A stretch of DNA of 64,000 nt from Candidatus Poribacteria bacterium. GTDB lineage: Bacteria > Poribacteria > WGA-4E > WGA-3G. Every line of letters begins with the position of its first letter. The stretch's first letter is position 1. Positions 55,953 through 64,000 of this stretch are shown here, in pieces. The DNA lies in contig CBDBFU010000002.1 of assembly GCA_965205025.1 (NCBI GenBank), positions 256,001 through 320,000 on the forward strand, read 5' to 3'. The notes under the pieces were generated by a model. The model was not told the origin of the DNA, searched no databases, and saw nothing but the letters and a program-made list of their open reading frames with translations. Position numbers and translations under genes: made by a program.

Positions 55953-57042
55953 CAGGACTTACGCAGTTTTAAATTTTATTGAAGGATTTGAGAGTTGATG
56001 TTTTAAGTAATCACTCAATAAACCATCTTTAAACTCGTAAATCTTTTGTCCAACAGCACGTACAACACGCGTCATAAAGACCCATACTTGGAAACTACAC
56101 GCAATATGATTTCTCTGGGCACGCATCTTACGACATTGGCATTTACCAATACCGGTTACTTGTTTCATCTCACGATGAAGGAGTTCAATCTTCCAACGGA
56201 GACGACACTTTTGGTGAGTCATATCCACATTTGATTGTGTCAAATCGTTTGTCACTATATATTCCGTGCGTCCGGTATCAGACACAAACCGGAATAACTT
56301 TACGACAGAACCTTTCGGAAAGTTTTTGAGATGTACGCGTTTACCGCTTTTCTTTTCTGCTTGAGACCAAGATAGATCTTTGACTGCCTTGTGAGGTTCT
56401 ACACCTTTGGTATCATTCACAAGACGGTTTCGTTTCAACGGAACATAATAGATCTTAGAAAGTCTATCAATCGCTTTCATCACTTTCATGGACGCATACC
56501 AAGAGTCCATCAAGACTGTCCGGAATGGGAGTTGTTTCTTAGAATAAGCATCGTGCAACATATCCAATAAATGATCGATTTTGGTTTTACCGTCATGATC
56601 TCTGTCAAAAATACGGTAATCAATGACCCAATATTCCTGTGTCTTAGGGTTGACATAGAGACAGGTGACAATACCGATACCTTGAATCACCTTTCTGTCA
56701 CTACCACTCCATTGAGAGCGTACTATTTCAATCCGTTTAGAATGTATTTTTGACAGCACAACATCATCAAAAATCAGGTATCCTTCTTCATCAAAGTCGA
56801 TGTCGTCTTTGACGGATGCCCAGAGTTCACTTGTAGGAATGTTTTCGTCTCTCAGAAAGCGATTGAGTTGATCGTGGCTCCAACGGTCTGTATGTTTAGC
56901 AAAATAAGTTTGTGTAAAATTAGTAAAACTTGAAAACAAATATTGACAATAATCGGAAAATAAGTCTTGCTTCTTTTTAGAATGTGTAAATGTGTTCATA
57001 ATCAATAAGAATAACACATTTTGTAATTTTGCGTAAGTCCTG
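55953..57042 (-). mobile_element. IS701-family insertion sequence, copy 2 (1090 bp)
   Basis: Same IRs as copy 1. Direct repeat TTAAT at 55948-55952 and 57043-57047. Only two substitutions noticed relative to copy 1. Confidence 0.92.
55959..56999 (-). CDS. IS701-family transposase
   Basis: Identical to copy 1 except one V-to-M change. Confidence 0.9.
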   Translation of the reverse strand: MNTFTHSKKKQDLFSDYCQYLFSSFTNFTQTYFAKHTDRWSHDQLNRFLRDENIPTSELWASVKDDIDFDEEGYLIFDDVVLSKIHSKRIEIVRSQWSGSDRKVIQGIGIVTCLYVNPKTQEYWVIDYRIFDRDHDGKTKIDHLLDMLHDAYSKKQLPFRTVLMDSWYASMKVMKAIDRLSKIYYVPLKRNRLVNDTKGVEPHKAVKDLSWSQAEKKSGKRVHLKNFPKGSVVKLFRFVSDTGRTEYIVTNDLTQSNVDMTHQKCRLRWKIELLHREMKQVTGIGKCQCRKMRAQRNHIACSFQVWVFMTRVVRAVGQKIYEFKDGLLSDYLKHQLSNPSIKFKTA

Positions 57043-57296: not shown

Positions 57297-58127
57297 TTAT
57301 TCTGCGGATGATTCTAATTCCTGTAGAAATGCTTCAACGCTGGATGTCTGGATTGCTGTCCGATGCAACCCTAACAAGTGATCAAAGTCTTGAATGGATT
57401 CAAGTGCTTTCGCCACAGGTTGTACATCCTCAAATGGAAAACGTTCGGTAAGAACAGACAAAATATTTCTAATACAAGCTTCAATACCTTGTTCAATACC
57501 TTGTCCAATACCGCGCTGCATTATGAGTTCGATAAAAGGAGATTCTTGCATCATTTCCTCCAATATGAGTTTTTGAAAAAGACTTGCATCGTATGTTAAA
57601 CTACCCAACGTTGATAATGCAAACAATAGTGTGCCACGCGTCTGTGTGTCAACGGGTGCGGATTCCGTCTTTTCGACACACTTTTGCAACCATGCTTCCG
57701 TGTTCATGCCTTCAGGTGGTTTCATTAAGGGTGTGAACGGTAATAGACCAACCGACACTGCATCCAAAAACAACTCACCTTCTAAATCTGCCAATCGAAT
57801 TACCTGATATTTGTGTTGCAAACCAAATGTATCATCTCCATAACTATAGCCACCTGGATCCGTTTGTCCTGCGTTTTGACTTAAATAGAGAACGACTGAA
57901 TAGACTGGAAGTTCATACCGTAGCAGAAGTTCACCAGCATACGCAAGAACACGCAACGGCATCGGTTTATCTCTACTGTCTTGGGTTTGTACTTCTATAT
58001 GAAGTAGTACTGTTTCATTATGCCACCGTACCTTAAATGTCATGTCGTTACGATGGACTTTTACTGTTTGTTGCTCCGTATCAAGTGTCTCTAAGACTTC
58101 AACATTGGATGTAGCAAAAGATAACAT
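57297..58127 (-). CDS. Rpn-family nuclease, probably 5'-truncated
   Basis: LLHIEVQT, MPLRVLAY, VYSVVLYL, GIEQG repeats. Internal GGAGG RBS with in-frame ATG at 57551. Confidence 0.8.
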   Translation of the reverse strand: MLSFATSNVEVLETLDTEQQTVKVHRNDMTFKVRWHNETVLLHIEVQTQDSRDKPMPLRVLAYAGELLLRYELPVYSVVLYLSQNAGQTDPGGYSYGDDTFGLQHKYQVIRLADLEGELFLDAVSVGLLPFTPLMKPPEGMNTEAWLQKCVEKTESAPVDTQTRGTLLFALSTLGSLTYDASLFQKLILEEMMQESPFIELIMQRGIGQGIEQGIEACIRNILSVLTERFPFEDVQPVAKALESIQDFDHLLGLHRTAIQTSSVEAFLQELESSAE

Positions 58128-58189: not shown

Positions 58190-59386
58190 TCAGGTTCTCT
58201 TCTTAACCGTTTTTACTGCATGTTCAAACGCCCTTTTATAGATTGTACGTTCAAGTCTATTTCCTACAAAATTTTCAAGATTGTCTTTTTCATCACGTAC
58301 ACGTTTCGCTTCAAAGTTAAAGGCATATAAATTATGACATGCTCGTCGATGTATGTGGTTTTGACCATTCTTATCTTCAAGATAATCTAAGTAAGAAATT
58401 GCGTCTTTTTTACATTTAATTGTCCAAATCTTTCCATTTTCGTTATCCCAATCTTTGATTGAAAAATTTTCTTCAGTGACCATTTTTACTAAATGATCGG
58501 CAAATTTAATACGCCTTTCTTCATATTTCTTTGGGTCTTTTTCTCTTTCTCGAGGTGACAATCGAGTCCAAGAAAATCCTGGTAACTGCACATATTTAAA
58601 TGCCGCGCTTAACATCCAACTCTGTGAATCAACTGAATCAACACCACAATAAAAAGCGAATAACATTAAGAGTGTTGACCCCATTGAGAAACAGTGAATA
58701 TGAGAATTTGGGAGAAGTTTACGGACTATACAAATAATATCAATTGCTTTTTGTTTACTTCCATTACGAGCAAGTGGTGCTAAACTTCCGATGCCGACAA
58801 TAGGAGGTTCTGGTCCGCAGATCTTGATAATTTCATCAATGCGGCGTTTTAAAGTCTGTGAACTATGTCCGTGAATTACAGGCATCAAATGGAAACCATC
58901 TGGAATATCACCGTTCCGAGAATTTAATTCGTCAAACATTCGACGCGTGTTTTCGACAGTATTTTTCCAACGTTTACCTTTTGTACGGGCTGCTGTTTTT
59001 GGTAGGAAAGGATGGTCTAAAACAACAGAGATGTCTGCCCCAAGCTCTAACCCAATTGAAAGAACATCATTAGGGTCAATACTAATGTCAGTGTGTTTTT
59101 GGAAGTTAAATGCACCAGAATCAAGTATCAAAGGACCATTAAACTCAATAAATTCATGAAGTTGACACTTTTTTTCTTTAATTTCTAATGCAGCAATTTT
59201 AGTTTGTTTATTCGCTAATAAATCAAAGGCGTTAAGCAGAACTCCTTGGGTGCCAGTAATATTCCATGGATGGAAACGTAAACGAGCCTGGGGAAAATCT
59301 CCAATGCGGTAACTGGCAAATAATGTTGGTGTTTCAAAAGAATAATCAGAAAAAACTGAAGAATTATCCACATCTTGACTCTTCAA
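58190..59386 (-). CDS. tRNA-guanine transglycosylase-family protein (arcTGT/DpdA-like, non-canonical)
   Basis: ETP, ILDSGAF, VLDHP, PVIHG, GIGSL, HIHCFSMG, GVDSVDS, CHNL. No CxCxxC zinc site. Confidence 0.85.
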   Translation of the reverse strand: MKSQDVDNSSVFSDYSFETPTLFASYRIGDFPQARLRFHPWNITGTQGVLLNAFDLLANKQTKIAALEIKEKKCQLHEFIEFNGPLILDSGAFNFQKHTDISIDPNDVLSIGLELGADISVVLDHPFLPKTAARTKGKRWKNTVENTRRMFDELNSRNGDIPDGFHLMPVIHGHSSQTLKRRIDEIIKICGPEPPIVGIGSLAPLARNGSKQKAIDIICIVRKLLPNSHIHCFSMGSTLLMLFAFYCGVDSVDSQSWMLSAAFKYVQLPGFSWTRLSPREREKDPKKYEERRIKFADHLVKMVTEENFSIKDWDNENGKIWTIKCKKDAISYLDYLEDKNGQNHIHRRACHNLYAFNFEAKRVRDEKDNLENFVGNRLERTIYKRAFEHAVKTVKKRT

Positions 59387-60564
59387 CTATCATTTTCCAC
59401 TTCTTGACTCAACCGTTCTCGCATTTTAGGTAAAAAATATCCTGGTAAGACATTTAACTCCGCTTTTTCTACAACTCCTTTTAATAATGTATACTCTTCC
59501 TTAACTATCTCTTCAGTTAAAGGCTTTAACTTGTCAGGCCGATTAGATACTGCTTCACCACGTTCTCTTAAATCTAATTCATACTTATTACGACCACTAT
59601 TTAGGTAATCTGAAACGTAGTTAATAGCAAGTTCAAAGTTGGCAATAGGTTGTAGTTCAATTGGTTCTCCTAATCGTCGTTCAATGGCAGGATATTGACG
59701 AAGGTCTTTGGGTTCTGGTACGGTTGCAATAACAAAGAAGACTGATTCCTTTAATGTATCAAAAAGGTGACGTAGGTCTTGGGCATATCGTGATTGCCGT
59801 GAACGAGTTAACCCTTCAAAAATCTCTTCAAATTCGTCAAATAATAGTACAACACCTGTACAGATATCTAATTCTTTTAATAGATTAATAAATCCATTTA
59901 AGAAACGTATTGCAAGTGAAGAACTCGTTATATCTACAGGTGTTTTCCCTCCTTGTATACTTATTATTTTTTTCTCTGATGTAAGAAGTTTATGTCCTTT
60001 CATCCAGCGAAGAAAAACGTCTTTCTGGCGTTCTTCTTCTGAAAATAACGGTATTGTAGAAGGATGAGTGATACTATGAAGTACTTCCAATATTTCATTA
60101 GCTGAAATTACCTTTGTTGAAAGTGACTTTATTAGATTTGAATCTGATCGTAGAACACTAACTAAATCATTCAGGAAAAAACCTGCCAATTTATCAATGA
60201 TTTGTTCATGAATATCAAAATAACTTTCTCCAGGAGCATAAATATAAATTGGACGTAGATTATTGATAAGTTTATTGCGTCTTGCTTCATCTATTAAACG
60301 CTCAAAATACTGTAAAATATTTGTTTTACCTGCTCCATTTTCACCGTTGATCCGTAAGCGTTTGGCATCGGAAGAAAAATTCTGTAAACTATAAACAAAC
60401 TTTTTCTTAATTTCGTCCTGGTCGGTACAAACATCAAAGCCTGTTTCACCATATCCTGGGAATGGATTTTCAAGAAGAAAGTATTTCTCATAAGGATTAA
60501 GTTCTTCCCGTTCAACTTCAAATAAAGAAAGGTCCTTTTTCAATGTCACTATAATCACTCCCAT
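59383..60564 (-). CDS. AAA+/P-loop ATPase
   Basis: ENPF, Walker A GENGAGKT, Walker B LLFDEFE, AIERRL arginine-finger-like motif. True start may be GTG 60549. Confidence 0.88.
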   Translation of the reverse strand: MGVIIVTLKKDLSLFEVEREELNPYEKYFLLENPFPGYGETGFDVCTDQDEIKKKFVYSLQNFSSDAKRLRINGENGAGKTNILQYFERLIDEARRNKLINNLRPIYIYAPGESYFDIHEQIIDKLAGFFLNDLVSVLRSDSNLIKSLSTKVISANEILEVLHSITHPSTIPLFSEEERQKDVFLRWMKGHKLLTSEKKIISIQGGKTPVDITSSSLAIRFLNGFINLLKELDICTGVVLLFDEFEEIFEGLTRSRQSRYAQDLRHLFDTLKESVFFVIATVPEPKDLRQYPAIERRLGEPIELQPIANFELAINYVSDYLNSGRNKYELDLRERGEAVSNRPDKLKPLTEEIVKEEYTLLKGVVEKAELNVLPGYFLPKMRERLSQEVENDS

Positions 60565-61499
60565 CGGACAAGTTTGACCAGACTACCCTTGACACGCATT
60601 CCATCTTCAAGGTAACGATATTCTAACCATTGTGATTTCTGACGATTGTTCTCGCTTCTCTCTTCAGTTTGTTTCCTACCTAACAATTCTGTAGAAAGAC
60701 GTTTGCCGAGGATTTCATTTCTTGGACGGATTGTAATGATTTGGTTTTTACCTGAAATGACACGGCGGATTGTAGCTGGGGCGAGTGTTATTTCACCGGG
60801 AAAAGTTTCTAATAATTGATTCATCTTCATCTCAAAAGCCTGAAAAGATATACGAAGCTCCTGGCAAACTAGATGTGCCAAACGACCAAGGTTTGCATAA
60901 GCAGATGTTTTATCTGTCTGATTGTACTTTTTTAGACAAATTTCTTTAAAGTTCTCTAATGAAGGTTTATTCTTATCCCATTCTCCACCCCAATATAAGA
61001 ATTCTTCAAATGGTGATCGATATGCATGTCCAACAGATATCGCCCAAGGATAAAATGTATCAAATGCTACAAAAGTAATATTATATCTTTCTTTTAAACT
61101 AACTCCTAAAGTTTTCTTAGCTTCTTTATTATGATGTTCCGGTATTTTAATCTGCCCTTGATCCTTTAAGCATTTAAGGAAACTAGCATAAGGTGAGTAA
61201 TTTGTTAATCCTTCATTCATTGGCAGTAGTTGATTTCCTATGTTCCAAGCATCAATAAAACTATGATATTTCTCAGTTAAATATAGAATATCAGATTTTC
61301 CCTCTCTTTGAGTCATCCATTGTGATTCTTTAAAGATTCGAAGTATATCCTTTACGCGCCGATCAAGATCCTTTATTTTTCCTCGACTCTCTATATCAAT
61401 AATCTTATAAAATGTATTCAGAGAGAGTTGATTATCTGTACGATGTGTATCAATAGCATCGGCAACAGAAAGCAACTTATTTATAGTGATCGGGTCCAT
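60555..61499 (-). CDS. Hypothetical protein, possible tandem winged-helix
   Basis: Wing-like ILYLTEKY and a C-terminal helix-turn-helix-like segment. The fold is inferred. Confidence 0.7.
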   Translation of the reverse strand: MDPITINKLLSVADAIDTHRTDNQLSLNTFYKIIDIESRGKIKDLDRRVKDILRIFKESQWMTQREGKSDILYLTEKYHSFIDAWNIGNQLLPMNEGLTNYSPYASFLKCLKDQGQIKIPEHHNKEAKKTLGVSLKERYNITFVAFDTFYPWAISVGHAYRSPFEEFLYWGGEWDKNKPSLENFKEICLKKYNQTDKTSAYANLGRLAHLVCQELRISFQAFEMKMNQLLETFPGEITLAPATIRRVISGKNQIITIRPRNEILGKRLSTELLGRKQTEERSENNRQKSQWLEYRYLEDGMRVKGSLVKLVRWE

Positions 61500-61502
61500 T
61501 TA

Positions 61503-62579
61503 TCATTCCTCCTGAATCTCCATCACATCGTGTGCAAAAAATCCTTGTTTTGCTTGTGAGTAATAGGCCAGTTCAATTTTGCGAGAACATTTCTTATTCT
61601 CCAATCGAATCGTACTGAAGACTTGTGCCATATCCCATAGTAGATAATGTATAGGTGTGAGTACTAACTTTCCATTATATGAATCGTATCTAACGGAACT
61701 AATTTTAGTAGGTACTGACGGTGTACCAATATGTAGACTATCTACATTTTCTAAGGTTGACAGTGAAGCCATATCTTTATCACCGGTCAGAAGATAAACA
61801 CCTTGTTGTAATCCTCGGTCTCGTTTAAGGTTTTTTGTGCTTTCAATAATCAATCTATCAATGTTTGAATTACCGTTGGACTGACCTAAGTGCTCAGAAA
61901 GAGTGGTTAGCATTTCTATAGGTCTCCACTGACGAATATGGTTCAATTCTCGACTAATACAAGAAACTTGTGGACGCTGACTCAAAACGCCACATTTACC
62001 AATATGTGGTTGTGTACCTCTCACAGATGCTTCCCAAAGATCACTTACTTCCTTAGCTTGTCTTTGTACTTCAGTCATAACAAAAACTGGTACTACTGTC
62101 CATATCAATACCTTAGATAAAGTTTTGTGCAAGAAAGAGGGAACTGCACGTCGTAAAGCACTCGTATCAACAACAAGTATCAAGTGGATTTGTTCTGAAA
62201 GTCTTTCCATTACATCTCGAAACCCCATTTTAATATTCTGTCTTTCCATTAGGCAAAACTCTGGACGTAGAAGCCCCGTTCGCAATATACTGTCAGCAAG
62301 TTCTGAACATATAAAATCAGCGGCTCTATGTTTTTGTGCCTTTTCATCAGATATTTTGGAAAAATTACATCTAATTTGTTGATTAGTTAAAGGCGTGAAA
62401 GTAAAAGGTAAAATCGGGTGTATCTGCGCAATTTTCTCGGATTCGTCAATTACGATTTCACCGAGTTTGATATATTCATCTTTAGGCAAATGAGTACCAT
62501 CTGTATAGGAAACTTCCCAATTACTCCAGAATCGGTATTCCGCAACAAACTCATCTAATTTTAGCGTACGACTACGCAT
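61503..62579 (-). CDS. PIN-domain nuclease
   Basis: Acidic PIN motifs VVDTSAL, VMTEV, IDRLIIE, LLTGDKDM. Confidence 0.8.
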   Translation of the reverse strand: MRSRTLKLDEFVAEYRFWSNWEVSYTDGTHLPKDEYIKLGEIVIDESEKIAQIHPILPFTFTPLTNQQIRCNFSKISDEKAQKHRAADFICSELADSILRTGLLRPEFCLMERQNIKMGFRDVMERLSEQIHLILVVDTSALRRAVPSFLHKTLSKVLIWTVVPVFVMTEVQRQAKEVSDLWEASVRGTQPHIGKCGVLSQRPQVSCISRELNHIRQWRPIEMLTTLSEHLGQSNGNSNIDRLIIESTKNLKRDRGLQQGVYLLTGDKDMASLSTLENVDSLHIGTPSVPTKISSVRYDSYNGKLVLTPIHYLLWDMAQVFSTIRLENKKCSRKIELAYYSQAKQGFFAHDVMEIQEE

Positions 62580-62997
62580 CAGAAATTCTCACTTTATACT
62601 CAGATTGCAGCTGATAATTCTGTAAAATTTCATGTACAACAGCCAACAAAATAGACTTTGATTTTAATTCTGTCATGAAAGTCGGTTCGCTAAACTTATC
62701 TTGAATATGATCTGAGGATTCTTCTAAGTCTGTATGTAATTCCTCAAATTGAGAGATAGCCTCGTTTATTATTGGATCAGGCAGATAAAAATCAACTTCC
62801 TTTTCACCTGATATTGGCTCATTAGTTTCTAAATCAATTGAGTTCAAATTTTCCACTTTATCCGAGATAGTATTAAGACAAATGATGATTTCACTTTCAT
62901 CTTTCCAATCATGAAAGTCCAAAAGAGAAAGACCTTCTACTTTATAGATATCAACTACTTTGTGTGTTAGAGGATTGACAACTTCTATTTTCATCAT
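62572..62997 (-). CDS. Acidic hypothetical protein
   Basis: 141 aa with GAAGGTG RBS. Its stop overlaps the PIN gene start. Confidence 0.75.
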   Translation of the reverse strand: MMKIEVVNPLTHKVVDIYKVEGLSLLDFHDWKDESEIIICLNTISDKVENLNSIDLETNEPISGEKEVDFYLPDPIINEAISQFEELHTDLEESSDHIQDKFSEPTFMTELKSKSILLAVVHEILQNYQLQSEYKVRISDA

Positions 62998-63026
62998 AAA
63001 ACACCTTCACCAATAGAATTAGAATA

Positions 63027-63473
63027 TTATCCCCATAACCAATTTTTTAACTGGGTTTGTTTTTTTCCAATCGTACCGTAAGTGACTATTTTTTCTATAT
63101 GAATTGGAATTATATTCCCCAGTTCTTCAAATACTTTTAAATACATTCGTCCAAGAACAAAACATACTGAAATGTAATTATTTTGAATTACATTTAAAAA
63201 AGATGATTTGACATCAGATTGGATCTCAGCTACTCGCATTAAGTTCATCTTTTGGTCATACAACTTAGTTTGGTGATCTTTCGAAATAAGTCCATAAGCA
63301 GCAGACAAAATATAAACATCTAATTGCTTTGCTTTGAGCGGACATTCACGAAGAAAACGACGTAAAACAAAAAATAGGGGCCCGTTGTATCTCTCAATCG
63401 CAGGTAACGGCTCTTGAGAAGGGTGTTTCCGCTGGGAACAAGATAAAATCAGCAAACGACGGTGACTGTTCAT
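63027..63473 (-). CDS. DUF6884/YaaA-like protein
   Basis: LLILSCSQRK, PAIERYNGPLF, YILSAAYGLI, YDQKM. Confidence 0.75.
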   Translation of the reverse strand: MNSHRRLLILSCSQRKHPSQEPLPAIERYNGPLFFVLRRFLRECPLKAKQLDVYILSAAYGLISKDHQTKLYDQKMNLMRVAEIQSDVKSSFLNVIQNNYISVCFVLGRMYLKVFEELGNIIPIHIEKIVTYGTIGKKQTQLKNWLWG

Positions 63474-63526
63474 AACATTCTTTCGCAAATATAAGATCGT
63501 ATTCAACAATAAACTGAATTTCTTAT

Positions 63527-63555
63527 ATTGTAAACTACAAGTTATATTATTGCAA
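63527..63555 (-). promoter_or_regulatory. Putative sigma70 promoter for the DUF6884-to-TGT operon
   Basis: TTGCAA-N17-TACAAT. Confidence 0.55.
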
Positions 63556-63600
63556 TGGGAAAATTAATGCTTGAATGCAATGGGAAAATTAATGCTTGAA
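63551..63600. repeat. Perfect 25-bp tandem duplication
   Basis: TGCAATGGGAAAATTAATGCTTGAA twice. Confidence 0.9.
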
Positions 63601-63639
63601 AAGACAAGATAGAAAACAGACTGGATTTATTACTACCGA

Positions 63640-64000
63640 TTACACTTCCCGATACTCACCCTGAAACACCTCTCTAACATGCCAACCGATATTCCCTTCA
63701 TCAGGATTAAACGTTCGACTTTGAGGTAGGTTGATTCTCTCCCCATGAAAATTCATCAACCACTCCTGAAATCCAACTGTTCCATGTGCTTCATTAGAGA
63801 CTAAGATATGTAACTGTTTTGACAATGTAAAAGCCCCACGGTCAAATAACTTATGATGCAATGAGCATAAAGCTAATCCGTTTATTTCTTGGTCAGATCC
63901 ACCTGCCATCTGCCATCTAATATGACACGCATCCAGAGCAACAGGAGAATTACCTAATTTGACATCATATCCACAGACTGCACACCTGTATTCATAGGCT
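63640..64000 (-). CDS. HNH endonuclease, modification-dependent restriction type (C-terminal part only)
   Basis: Frame extends to the window edge: AYEYRCAVCG...LDACHIRW...NGLALCSLHHKLFDRG...WHVREVF. Confidence 0.88.
   Translation of the reverse strand, partial: AYEYRCAVCGYDVKLGNSPVALDACHIRWQMAGGSDQEINGLALCSLHHKLFDRGAFTLSKQLHILVSNEAHGTVGFQEWLMNFHGERINLPQSRTFNPDEGNIGWHVREVFQGEYREV

Follow-up and report, generated by a model that had tools for sequence, protein, structure and literature searches.

The window analysed here, a stretch of 64,000 nucleotides from a Candidatus Poribacteria bacterium (assembly GCA_965205025.1, contig CBDBFU010000002.1, positions 256,001 to 320,000), holds near its end a cluster of six genes, named g1 to g6 in order of transcription, which encode a DUF6884 protein, a small acidic protein, a predicted PIN-domain nuclease, a protein of winged-helix-like domains, a P-loop ATPase, and a TGT-fold transglycosylase. 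Judged from its sequence, the cluster looks like an undescribed compact variant of restriction-modification defence. The reading we favour, at slightly better than an even chance, is that of a compact Dpd-like 7-deazaguanine DNA modification–restriction system, because of its gene content, its conservation, the natural fusions of its components, their intact catalytic motifs, and the published biochemistry of Dpd. Marks of the 7-deazaguanine type have been described in the DNA of phages and in Dpd islands of 11 genes; DpdA depends there on DpdB, a ParB-like ATPase. The cluster shares with these islands the core of a TGT-fold enzyme and a DpdC-type protein, and probably the chemistry too; its TGT-fold enzyme fails the family tests for DpdA. 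In that chemistry, according to passages of PMC10164549, preQ0 is inserted by DpdA while DpdB hydrolyses ATP, and DpdC turns dPreQ0 into dADG.

A number of arguments tie g1 to DpdC. The protein matches Pfam DUF6884 (PF21818) at 1e-10 (42.3 bits, cut-off 30), with weak additional matches to Pfam YaaA (3.8e-4) and to the PADLOC model of DpdC (7.6e-4). It also matches the PADLOC candidate model PDC-M57A at 1e-10, a model which shows that DUF6884-like proteins have previously been flagged near defence genes; the other components of PDC-M57 are unmatched by all six proteins of the cluster. The motifs CSQRK and LSAAYG of g1 fit the pair CxxxK and LSAxxG that Pfam's authors give for DUF6884 in passages of PMC11701544, where DUF6884 and YaaA are also described as DNA-binding, and residues C12, K16, S57, and A58 are invariant across 11 sequences. 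First, Pfam scans of dpd islands place DUF6884 in DpdC, as stated in parts of the GATOR-GC preprint. Second, the DpdC of a Sinorhizobium plasmid (PADLOC 4.4e-86) likewise matches PDC-M57A, at 8.8e-6. Third, a profile of the g1 family aligns with this DpdC in hhalign with a probability of 40% (E 3e-4, 102 columns). Fourth, and as stronger evidence, contig C12 of the same genome encodes a DUF6884–DpdA fusion, with whose N-terminal domain g1 shares 30% identity (E 1e-13). By these comparisons, g1 is a distant, short-form member of the DpdC superfamily; a search of solved structures with its sequence returned nothing. An earlier note on this DNA, made from the letters alone, had recognised no Dpd partner beside the TGT-fold gene. 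That statement has to be withdrawn: DUF6884 is a DpdC-type domain, which the same genome joins to a bona fide DpdA in one protein, and the cluster is therefore a relative of Dpd and not an unrelated system.

The second half of the core, g6, is a TGT-fold enzyme of a separate kind. It matches Pfam TGT at 4.8e-19 and, among NCBIfam models, scores best with arcTGT (TIGR00432, 76 bits), followed by Tgt (33 bits) and DpdA (NF041059, 26.6 bits, E 2.5e-6, far under the cut-off of 200). At E <= 0.1 it has no match among the PADLOC models of DpdA, and a weak one with the PADLOC CBASS-type 'TGT' model (0.0029, and 3.9e-7 for a Saccharibacteria relative). Its best solved relative is the arcTGT of P. horikoshii (1iq8, 2.2e-11), in a match that covers the catalytic core only, and with 398 residues against the 582 of arcTGT it is devoid of the C-terminal tRNA-binding domains. 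Residues D89 (LDSG), D124 (LDHP), and D253 (VDSQ) align with the arcTGT motifs and are kept in all clade members that cover them; passages of PMC10164549 give the roles of the three active-site aspartates of TGT and DpdA as general acid/base, base recognition, and nucleophile. The same passages, by Gedara et al., report that a zinc site CXCX2CX22H is conserved in both families, TGT and DpdA. The CxCxxC part of this site is absent from g6 and 12 relatives (13 clade members), in which only the histidine of ACHNL is kept. The homologues of g6 form 420 clusters at E <= 1e-10. A phage origin of the clade was considered and rejected, as no relative was found in IMG/VR by a pattern-plus-tblastn scan, which detects only sequences with two chosen motifs.

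The genome holds three TGT-fold genes: the housekeeping Tgt on contig C15 (553.7 bits), g6, and the fusion on contig C12. The last is a 589-residue DUF6884–DpdA protein that matches PADLOC DpdA at 1.9e-95, has the zinc motif CxCxxC…H, and resembles in its TGT part proteins named DpdA by PGAP on 27 plasmids, at up to 39.5% identity. Its locus (L019:6562-12002) consists of a 545-residue, weakly NurA-like protein (7.2e-4), a 672-residue HerA, and then the fusion. A pair of genes matching the PADLOC candidates PDC-M30A/M41A (GMT-wHTH) and PDC-M41B/M30B (DUF5131, 2.4e-109) lies 2.7 kb downstream (L019:14666-16597), and because this candidate pair sits nearby, the C12 locus is likewise read as a defence island. 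A comparable arrangement is found with TGTs of the g6 clade: in metagenome-assembled genomes (MAGs) of Saccharibacteria, Armatimonadota, Acidobacteriota, and Bacillota, a g6-clade TGT and a DUF6884 protein are accompanied by HerA and by a protein of about 610 residues for which Pfam, PADLOC, and NCBIfam gave no match. In both settings the gene immediately before that of the TGT encodes an ATPase, g5 in the present cluster and HerA in L011, L014, and the C12 locus. No description of either architecture, the NurA-like/HerA/fusion of C12 or the 610-residue protein with HerA, TGT, and DUF6884, was found in the literature searched.

The surroundings of the relatives also touch on the supply of preQ0. 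A gene for a VUT/YhhQ-type transporter adjoins g1 in three loci and QueC does so in one of 28, while the canonical cluster of the Sinorhizobium plasmid runs DpdC-DpdB-DpdA-DpdB-QueE-QueD-QueC-VUT. A Saccharibacteria locus has, between HerA and VUT/QueC, a gene of the nucleoside 2-deoxyribosyltransferase family (L010:9663-10115, 3.7e-21), a base-exchange enzyme. The window's genome encodes QueC (248.7 bits) and, at the very end of contig C16, a QueD-like fragment of 23 bits; to judge by these genes, it can probably supply preQ0. No DndB/DpdB-like gene (PF14072) was found in the whole genome, which is 95.5% complete.

Genes g2 to g5, hereafter the cassette, recur with the TGT and DUF6884 genes far beyond this genome. 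Scans seeded with g6 alone returned 12 loci, and those seeded with an alignment of the clade returned 28 loci in 27 records. In this larger set, g1 lies within 8 kb of the TGT gene in 24 loci, and g3, g4, and g5 stand in the window's order in 21, with one more locus cut at the contig end just past g5. Four have only the 610-residue protein, HerA, or both, a fifth (L012) is too short, and one, which is distant, has none of these partners. The cassette loci span Poribacteria, Latescibacterota, Chloroflexota, and Acidobacteriota. When g4 was used as the seed, 19 loci were found: g3 is present in all of them, g5 and g6 in all 18 that are long enough, and g2 and g1 in 16 each, g1 being inverted downstream of the TGT gene in two. 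None of the g4-seeded loci long enough is without a TGT, and no stand-alone cassette was found; one locus (L035) appears decayed. The view that the six genes are a conserved unit is thus upheld, with the same order recurring in 21/28 TGT-clade loci, in 18/18 usable g4-seeded loci from other species, and in four phyla. The cassette and the 610-residue protein with HerA occur together in two Anaerolineae loci (L048, L056), where the latter follow the TGT gene.

The cassette exists in two types. Three Poribacteria loci encode a TGT and a g1 protein 65-70% identical to those of the window, with g3 to g5 only about 30% identical; these define type b, which has an acidic g2 of its own, the window's cassette being of type a. 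One genome holds both types at separate places. In a maximum-likelihood tree of 25 TGT sequences (L012, L013, and L063, truncated or distant, and L046, which is cut, were left out), the two types are mixed with each other, three or more changes per type are required by well-supported branches, and the window's type-a TGT nests with three type-b loci (support 99/95). On this phylogeny, the cassette types have been exchanged between TGT lineages, the pattern to expect if a module of specificity or effector function is caught up in an arms race.

The individual proteins of the cassette are poorly covered by family databases, and the domain assignments of the earlier note (DUF6884, PIN, winged helix-turn-helix, ATPase, and TGT) hold in our family searches and in the structure model of g4. 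The g3 protein scores 2.9e-4 with PIN_4 (21.6 bits, 0.3 bits below the Pfam cut-off of 21.9), and this model matches 13 of 14 members of the g3 family at E <= 0.01 (best 2.1e-8). Residues D138, E170, D241, D267, and D269 are invariant across both cassette types. The family comprises 221 homologue clusters and g3 has no PADLOC match. The PIN gene is fragmented in L008, and in L009 an insertion of 1.3 kb, with a 439-residue open reading frame (ORF), divides it. Natural fusions of a PIN domain with a g4-like protein (P0278 and P0285) were found among the 63 representatives of the g4 family, which suggests that g3 and g4 would act as one unit.

For g4 itself, no family was found in Pfam, PADLOC, or NCBIfam. 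The AlphaFold2 model (pLDDT 85.7, pTM 0.83) resolves into three parts, which VIA-align matches at modest scores (Z 6-8.2) to winged helices of MukF, Hel308, and MarR (residues 4-88), to a Sulfolobus DNA-binding protein (residues 100-173), and to winged helices of Cdt1, Tpt1, and SAMD1 (residues 177-314); the matches of Foldseek have E 0.015 and weaker. We therefore consider g4 a triple winged-helix protein with moderate confidence only, because the structure scores are modest, and the earlier guess of a winged-helix-like fold is borne out to that extent. The family is small: 179 clusters at 90% identity, and the 63 representatives among 1.84 billion proteins. A 'DpdG-like' cluster in the ESM Atlas (rank 30, score 0.82, a lead only) made DpdG a candidate identity, which was rejected at the sequence level: against the DpdG of an Enterobacter plasmid dpd cluster the g4 profile reached an hhalign probability of 0.2%, in a comparison whose sensitivity is limited by the use of one DpdG sequence, and none of 32 remote g4 relatives matches an NCBIfam Dpd model.

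The g5 ATPase matches TniB (1.2e-6) and BrxC_BrxD (2.7e-5, residues 176-298, 23.7 bits, cut-off 22.2), and more weakly NACHT and AAA_16; its type-b orthologue matches PADLOC BrxD at 2.4e-6. Walker A (G74-K80-T81) and Walker B (D243-E244) are present, along with the motifs YAQDLR and RR (R296-R297). Across 17 sequences there is no variation at D243 and E244 or in the YAQDLR and RR motifs, and Walker A is kept wherever it is covered. An identity with DpdH was rejected, as there is no BLASTP match to the DpdH of the Enterobacter plasmid dpd cluster, and searches of solved structures with the g5 sequence and the g3 profile gave nothing. Finally, g2 has no significant family (its best matches are PADLOC Cyclase at E 0.027, 11.5 bits and chance-level, and NCBIfam DCM_methyl_Nterm at 0.039), and scans of Pfam, PADLOC, and NCBIfam gave no antitoxin family. 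Each of the 16 other loci listed has an acidic counterpart (isoelectric point 4.2-5.2) in the place of g2, and tblastn finds g2 in 19 of 21 cassette loci.

The six genes are one operon (Table 1). Going down from g1, there is a 29-bp gap before g2, an overlap of 8 bp between the stop of g2 and the start of g3 (62572-62579), a 3-bp gap between g3 and g4, and overlaps of 10 bp between g4 and g5 (60555-60564) and of 4 bp between g5 and g6 (59383-59386). These are the gaps and overlaps, among six co-directional ORFs, that the earlier note had listed, and the AT-richness visible to it is real: the cluster has a G+C content (GC) of 35.3%, below the 39.4% of the window, and a lower value is reached by only 0.8% of 5.3-kb segments. 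The start of g1 is probably the ATG, because orthologues align from residue 13 of the longest ORF. The promoter that the earlier note proposed for the operon finds no such backing, the promoter-like sites between 57900 and 64000 numbering 21 against 21.9 expected in shuffled sequences; two weak matches fall within the region 5' of g1, in a regional count that is at chance level. A perfect 25-bp repeat in the same region (2 copies against 0.00 expected) was considered as a conserved operator and rejected, since 16 other loci lack it 5' of g1. When L002 (1-9000) was scanned with Rfam, no riboswitch or other RNA emerged, the sole match being a chance-level snoRNA (E 0.22).

Table 1. Genes of the cluster and its 5' region (positions in the window), and loci of relatives with the 610-residue protein and HerA
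Feature	Position	Strand	Description
g1	63027..63473	-	DUF6884/DpdC-like, ~148 aa from ATG 63473; longest ORF from TTG 63509 = 160 aa
g2	62572..62997	-	141 aa, acidic, pI 4.35, without known family
g3	61503..62579	-	PIN-domain nuclease (predicted), 358 aa; PIN = residues 136-281; N-terminal ~130 aa without family
g4	60555..61499	-	314 aa; three winged-helix-like domains (AlphaFold2 model); small unnamed family
g5	59383..60564	-	P-loop ATPase, 393 aa; AAA+/STAND-like, BrxC/BrxD-like core
g6	58190..59386	-	TGT-fold transglycosylase, 398 aa; clade apart from bacterial Tgt, archaeal TgtA, and DpdA
Intergenic region 5' of g1	63474..63639	-	presumed operon regulatory region; perfect 25-bp tandem duplication 63551-63600
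~610-aa protein + HerA loci	L010:5981-9660, L011:6185-9999, L014:3590-7324, L048:6480 onward, L056:10018 onward		

Put together, these components suggest a division of labour. By homology, g6 would replace guanine in the DNA of its own cell by preQ0 from the housekeeping queuosine pathway, and g1 would process the inserted base on DNA, the counterpart step in Dpd being the conversion of the nitrile to the amide that yields dADG. Domains, fusions, and context suggest that g4 binds DNA and directs the PIN nuclease of g3, roles that the PIN–winged-helix fusions fit. The ATPase g5 would power loading or translocation by ATP and may also replace the missing DpdB, because the ATPase gene directly precedes the TGT gene both here and in the HerA variants. 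The acidic g2, translationally coupled to g3, would restrain or adapt the nuclease. The outcome would be that unmarked incoming DNA is cut and marked self DNA spared. A more specific proposal can be made tentatively, at rather less than an even chance: the cluster would be a third, independent design of base-exchange restriction-modification, in which a zinc-less TGT puts a 7-deazaguanine mark on DNA with no ParB-like DpdB, is driven by g5 (by HerA in the sister loci), and is joined to an exchangeable PIN–triple-winged-helix module that reads the unmarked state and cuts. In a bolder form, the TGT itself may be the weapon, exchanging or excising bases of the invader's DNA or tethering a tagged protein to it.

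Several observations weigh against a modification–restriction system of the Dpd kind. By sequence g6 is not a DpdA, and it is without the structural zinc motif that TGT and DpdA share; because the archaeal tRNA TGT outscores DpdA, a tRNA substrate is conceivable. The tie between g1 and DpdC is distant, with an hhalign probability of only 40% and half the length of DpdC, and g2 to g5 have no detectable homology to DpdB or to DpdD-K. PIN domains are more often RNases than DNases. The supply of preQ0 is verified in part, QueD being present only as a fragment at a contig end. The pair of TGT and DUF6884 does not require the cassette and occurs without it, beside the 610-residue protein and HerA, in 4-5 loci. 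Because the IMG/VR scan for two chosen motifs found no member of the g6 clade in viral contigs, the clade has no phage precedent for acting on DNA.

The alternative that survives best, and which we nevertheless regard as improbable, is that the system is directed at RNA: g6 would modify tRNA or other RNA, of the host or of a phage, the PIN protein would be a VapC-type RNase effector that halts translation in infection, and g2 would be antitoxin-like. The family scores of g6, highest with archaeal tRNA TGT and far under the DpdA cut-off, and its closest structure, arcTGT, fit this view; members of PIN_4 are largely RNases, and the 8-bp overlap of a small acidic gene with the PIN gene is in the style of antitoxin–toxin pairs. 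The constant partner, however, is of the DpdC type, in a family described as DNA-binding and, on contig C12, joined in one protein to a bona fide DpdA. The other partners are also of a DNA type (HerA, the weakly NurA-like protein, and the triple winged-helix protein), g6 does not carry the C-terminal tRNA-binding domains, and a housekeeping Tgt exists elsewhere in the genome.

A slightly less probable alternative is that two independent units are superposed, g1 and g6 being a stand-alone DNA-modification pair and g2 to g5 a separate defence or toxin–antitoxin-like module nested between them. Defence islands often contain nested systems, the pair is found without the cassette in L059, L062, L012, L013, and L014, the cassette types have been swapped between TGT lineages, and TGT and g1 can be 65-70% identical to those of the window where g3 to g5 are only about 30% identical. 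Yet the cassette was never found alone, the TGT gene lying directly downstream of g5 in all 18 g4-seeded loci long enough, and g5 and g6 overlap by 4 bp. So small a family as that of g4 is more in keeping with a dedicated accessory than with a system that stands on its own, and wherever the flanks are long enough, the pair adjoins a module that contains an ATPase, be it the cassette or the 610-residue protein with HerA.

A scenario of base excision is about as improbable as that of two units. The ATPase and the winged-helix protein would find foreign or damaged DNA, the TGT and the DUF6884 protein would flip and remove or replace bases, and the PIN nuclease would cut at the sites so produced, with no heritable mark of self, in attack or in repair. 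The DUF6884 member YfjM of B. subtilis is of relevance here, as passages of PMC11701544 report its recovery in a pull-down with abasic or RNA-base lesions, and the authors model base flipping; the loss of the zinc subdomain in g6 is a further sign that the clade departs from DpdA. But all characterised DNA TGTs, that is, DpdA, install a protective or self mark, as far as passages of PMC10164549 go, and the VUT and QueC genes beside the relatives point to consumption of 7-deazaguanine and not to mere excision. Least probable of all is a TGT directed at proteins or conjugates as in type IV CBASS, with g6 handling a deazaguanine-tagged partner (g2, g3, or g5) and no marking of the genome, modelled on the proposal, as cited in passages of PMC13376578, that the QueC-like Cap9 puts 7-deazaguanine on a protein N-terminus and the TGT-like Cap10 binds it and passes it to a target. 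In its favour, the weak PADLOC CBASS 'TGT' matches of g6 and its Saccharibacteria relative are about equal to their DpdA matches; against it, the operon has no QueC-like, Cap9-type, or cyclase gene, QueC is adjacent in just the one locus, and the constant partner is DpdC-like and not Cap9-like.

Returning to a Dpd-like modification–restriction system, how the cluster stands to those already described can be set out more fully. The earlier note knew of no described system that pairs a TGT with a PIN nuclease and this ATPase, and no described system is a full match: PADLOC matches g1, weakly g5 and g6, g2 at chance level, and g3 and g4 not at all. The gene set was not found described in the literature searched, outside of which lie the supplementary tables on GATOR-GC, YprA, and BREX that could list variants. 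With Dpd of the Salmonella Montevideo type the cluster shares 1) a TGT-fold enzyme with a protein of the DpdC superfamily (DUF6884/DUF328, YaaA-fold); 2) an ATPase beside the TGT, an ATPase being required in Dpd; 3) a tie to preQ0 supply, in the VUT and QueC genes found beside relatives of the cluster and beside the canonical plasmid cluster; and 4) the joining of a modification module to a module that contains a nuclease. It differs in that g6 falls outside the DpdA family and is without the CXCX2CX22H site, that neither operon nor genome has a ParB/DndB-like DpdB, that the nuclease is a PIN and not a PLD enzyme, that six genes stand against about 11 and g1 is about half as long as DpdC, and that DpdD-K are absent, with no PADLOC or NCBIfam Dpd match for g2 to g5. 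The restriction genes dpdD-K encode SNF2, DEAD, and YprA helicases, DpdG, DpdH/I, and a PLD nuclease.

The architecture with HerA has the same core of DUF6884 and a TGT, again with an ATPase gene 5' of the TGT gene, and with the TGT of the g6 clade in L059, L062, L013, and L014; its partners are HerA and the 610-residue protein (the weakly NurA-like one on C12), unlike the PIN, winged-helix, and P-loop ATPase proteins of the cluster, and the TGT on C12 is a true DpdA with the zinc motif. Type IV CBASS (QueC-like Cap9, TGT-like Cap10, OGG) likewise has a TGT-fold protein in a defence operon, but the cluster has no credible cyclase, no QueC-like Cap9, and no cyclic-nucleotide effector, and its partner is DpdC-like. 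Another comparison is with BRC, which passages of PMC12839542 describe as HerA/FtsK, GNAT, and TGT with BREX-like PglZ, DUF6079, STAND, and DUF4007; its authors propose there that another NTPase substitutes for DpdB, and report no DpdC homologue in BRC. As far as that description goes, the two are alike in having recruited a TGT to a multi-gene defence operon without DpdB, and the core of g5 is of the BrxC/BrxD type; unlike BRC, the operon has a DpdC homologue and is without PglZ, DUF6079, DUF4007, GNAT, and HerA. Nor is the cluster a BREX system, as there is no PglZ or PglX and the match of g5 to the BrxC_BrxD ATPase core is partial, or BRIGADE, which is YprA-based and haloarchaeal. With type I restriction-modification there is a functional analogy only, since there too one operon brings together a subunit for DNA recognition, an ATPase and nuclease, and a modification enzyme, and specificity modules are exchangeable; there is no homology, and the mark would be made by base exchange and not by methylation.

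The cluster lies in a defence island, as supported by SspC/SspD, a GmrSD-like gene, and insertion sequences (IS); together with the low GC, the Ssp genes and IS also suit an acquired island. The IS neighbour of the earlier note is an IS701-family transposase (55959-57017, 4.3e-109), and its HNH neighbour is present at 63640-64000, albeit as a C-terminal fragment (positions 172-284 of 284 of a model for phosphorothioated-DNA-binding restriction endonucleases, 9.3e-44). Reading 20 kb from position 314000 of contig C2 onward, we found that the gene is split just past the window end (L002:5641-7444) by an IS630 element (2.3e-30), beyond which lies the N-terminal piece (model 4-84, 1.7e-29); an intact orthologue exists in a Poribacteria MAG (L003:4864-5760, 350.9 bits). 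Past IS630 come SspD (1.3e-118) and SspC from model position ~260 (8.5e-238), beside an IS1595 transposase (L002:7457-10964), and farther on a second SspD/SspC pair, a GmrSD-like (SspE-like) protein of 764 residues, and a HATPase protein of 810 residues (L002:16260-19999). These make up two phosphorothioation gene sets of the Ssp type. The SspC upstream of the cluster has a BrxC score as well, yet it is part of the Ssp genes. The suggestion that HNH might be a second effector fails on these grounds: it is an IS630-broken, phosphorothioate-dependent endonuclease beside SspD/SspC and accompanies the cluster in only 4/28 and 4/19 loci, and it was rejected as a member of the system and assigned to the neighbouring Ssp system. 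An SspD and HNH pair stands directly upstream of the six-gene cluster in L003, with remnants in L007. As to the expectation of more genes beyond the window, the 20 kb held no further gene of the system upstream in this genome, the next genes being the broken HNH, IS630, and SspD/SspC; yet the 610-residue protein and HerA do follow the TGT in the two Anaerolineae relatives.

Two further observations concern the neighbours. The 276-residue ORF at 57297-58127, which had been labelled 'Rpn', does not bear out that name, with no Pfam, NCBIfam, or PADLOC match at E <= 0.1 save a chance-level GerE (0.05). L003 encodes in the corresponding place a counterpart with 77% identity (L003:11305-12186), and an ORF of 290 residues that looks similar by eye lies beside QueC on contig C10 (L066:4608-5480); they may belong to an unannotated family abundant in the lineage. 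In another Poribacteria locus, a 506-residue DndB-family protein (7.8e-32) is encoded directly upstream of the DUF6884 gene, after SspC/SspD (L005:4150-5670), and may either serve Ssp or be a DpdB-like partner of the TGT.

Our analysis adds three unannotated families, g2, g3, and g4, to the genes of defence islands. To what is known of 7-deazaguanine marks, the operon would add the same chemistry in six genes, a zinc-less clade of TGT, a different ATPase, and a PIN nuclease for which a triple winged-helix protein acts as guide. Should the independent design proposed above be true, the ATP-dependent partner of DNA transglycosylases would be interchangeable, and cassette types a and b would be natural specificity variants. 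What makes the system tractable is its small size, the natural fusions of DUF6884 with DpdA and of PIN with winged helices, and the existence of two exchangeable types of cassette. Both the role of the ATPase for a DNA transglycosylase and the way in which an unmodified site is read would become testable through this operon.

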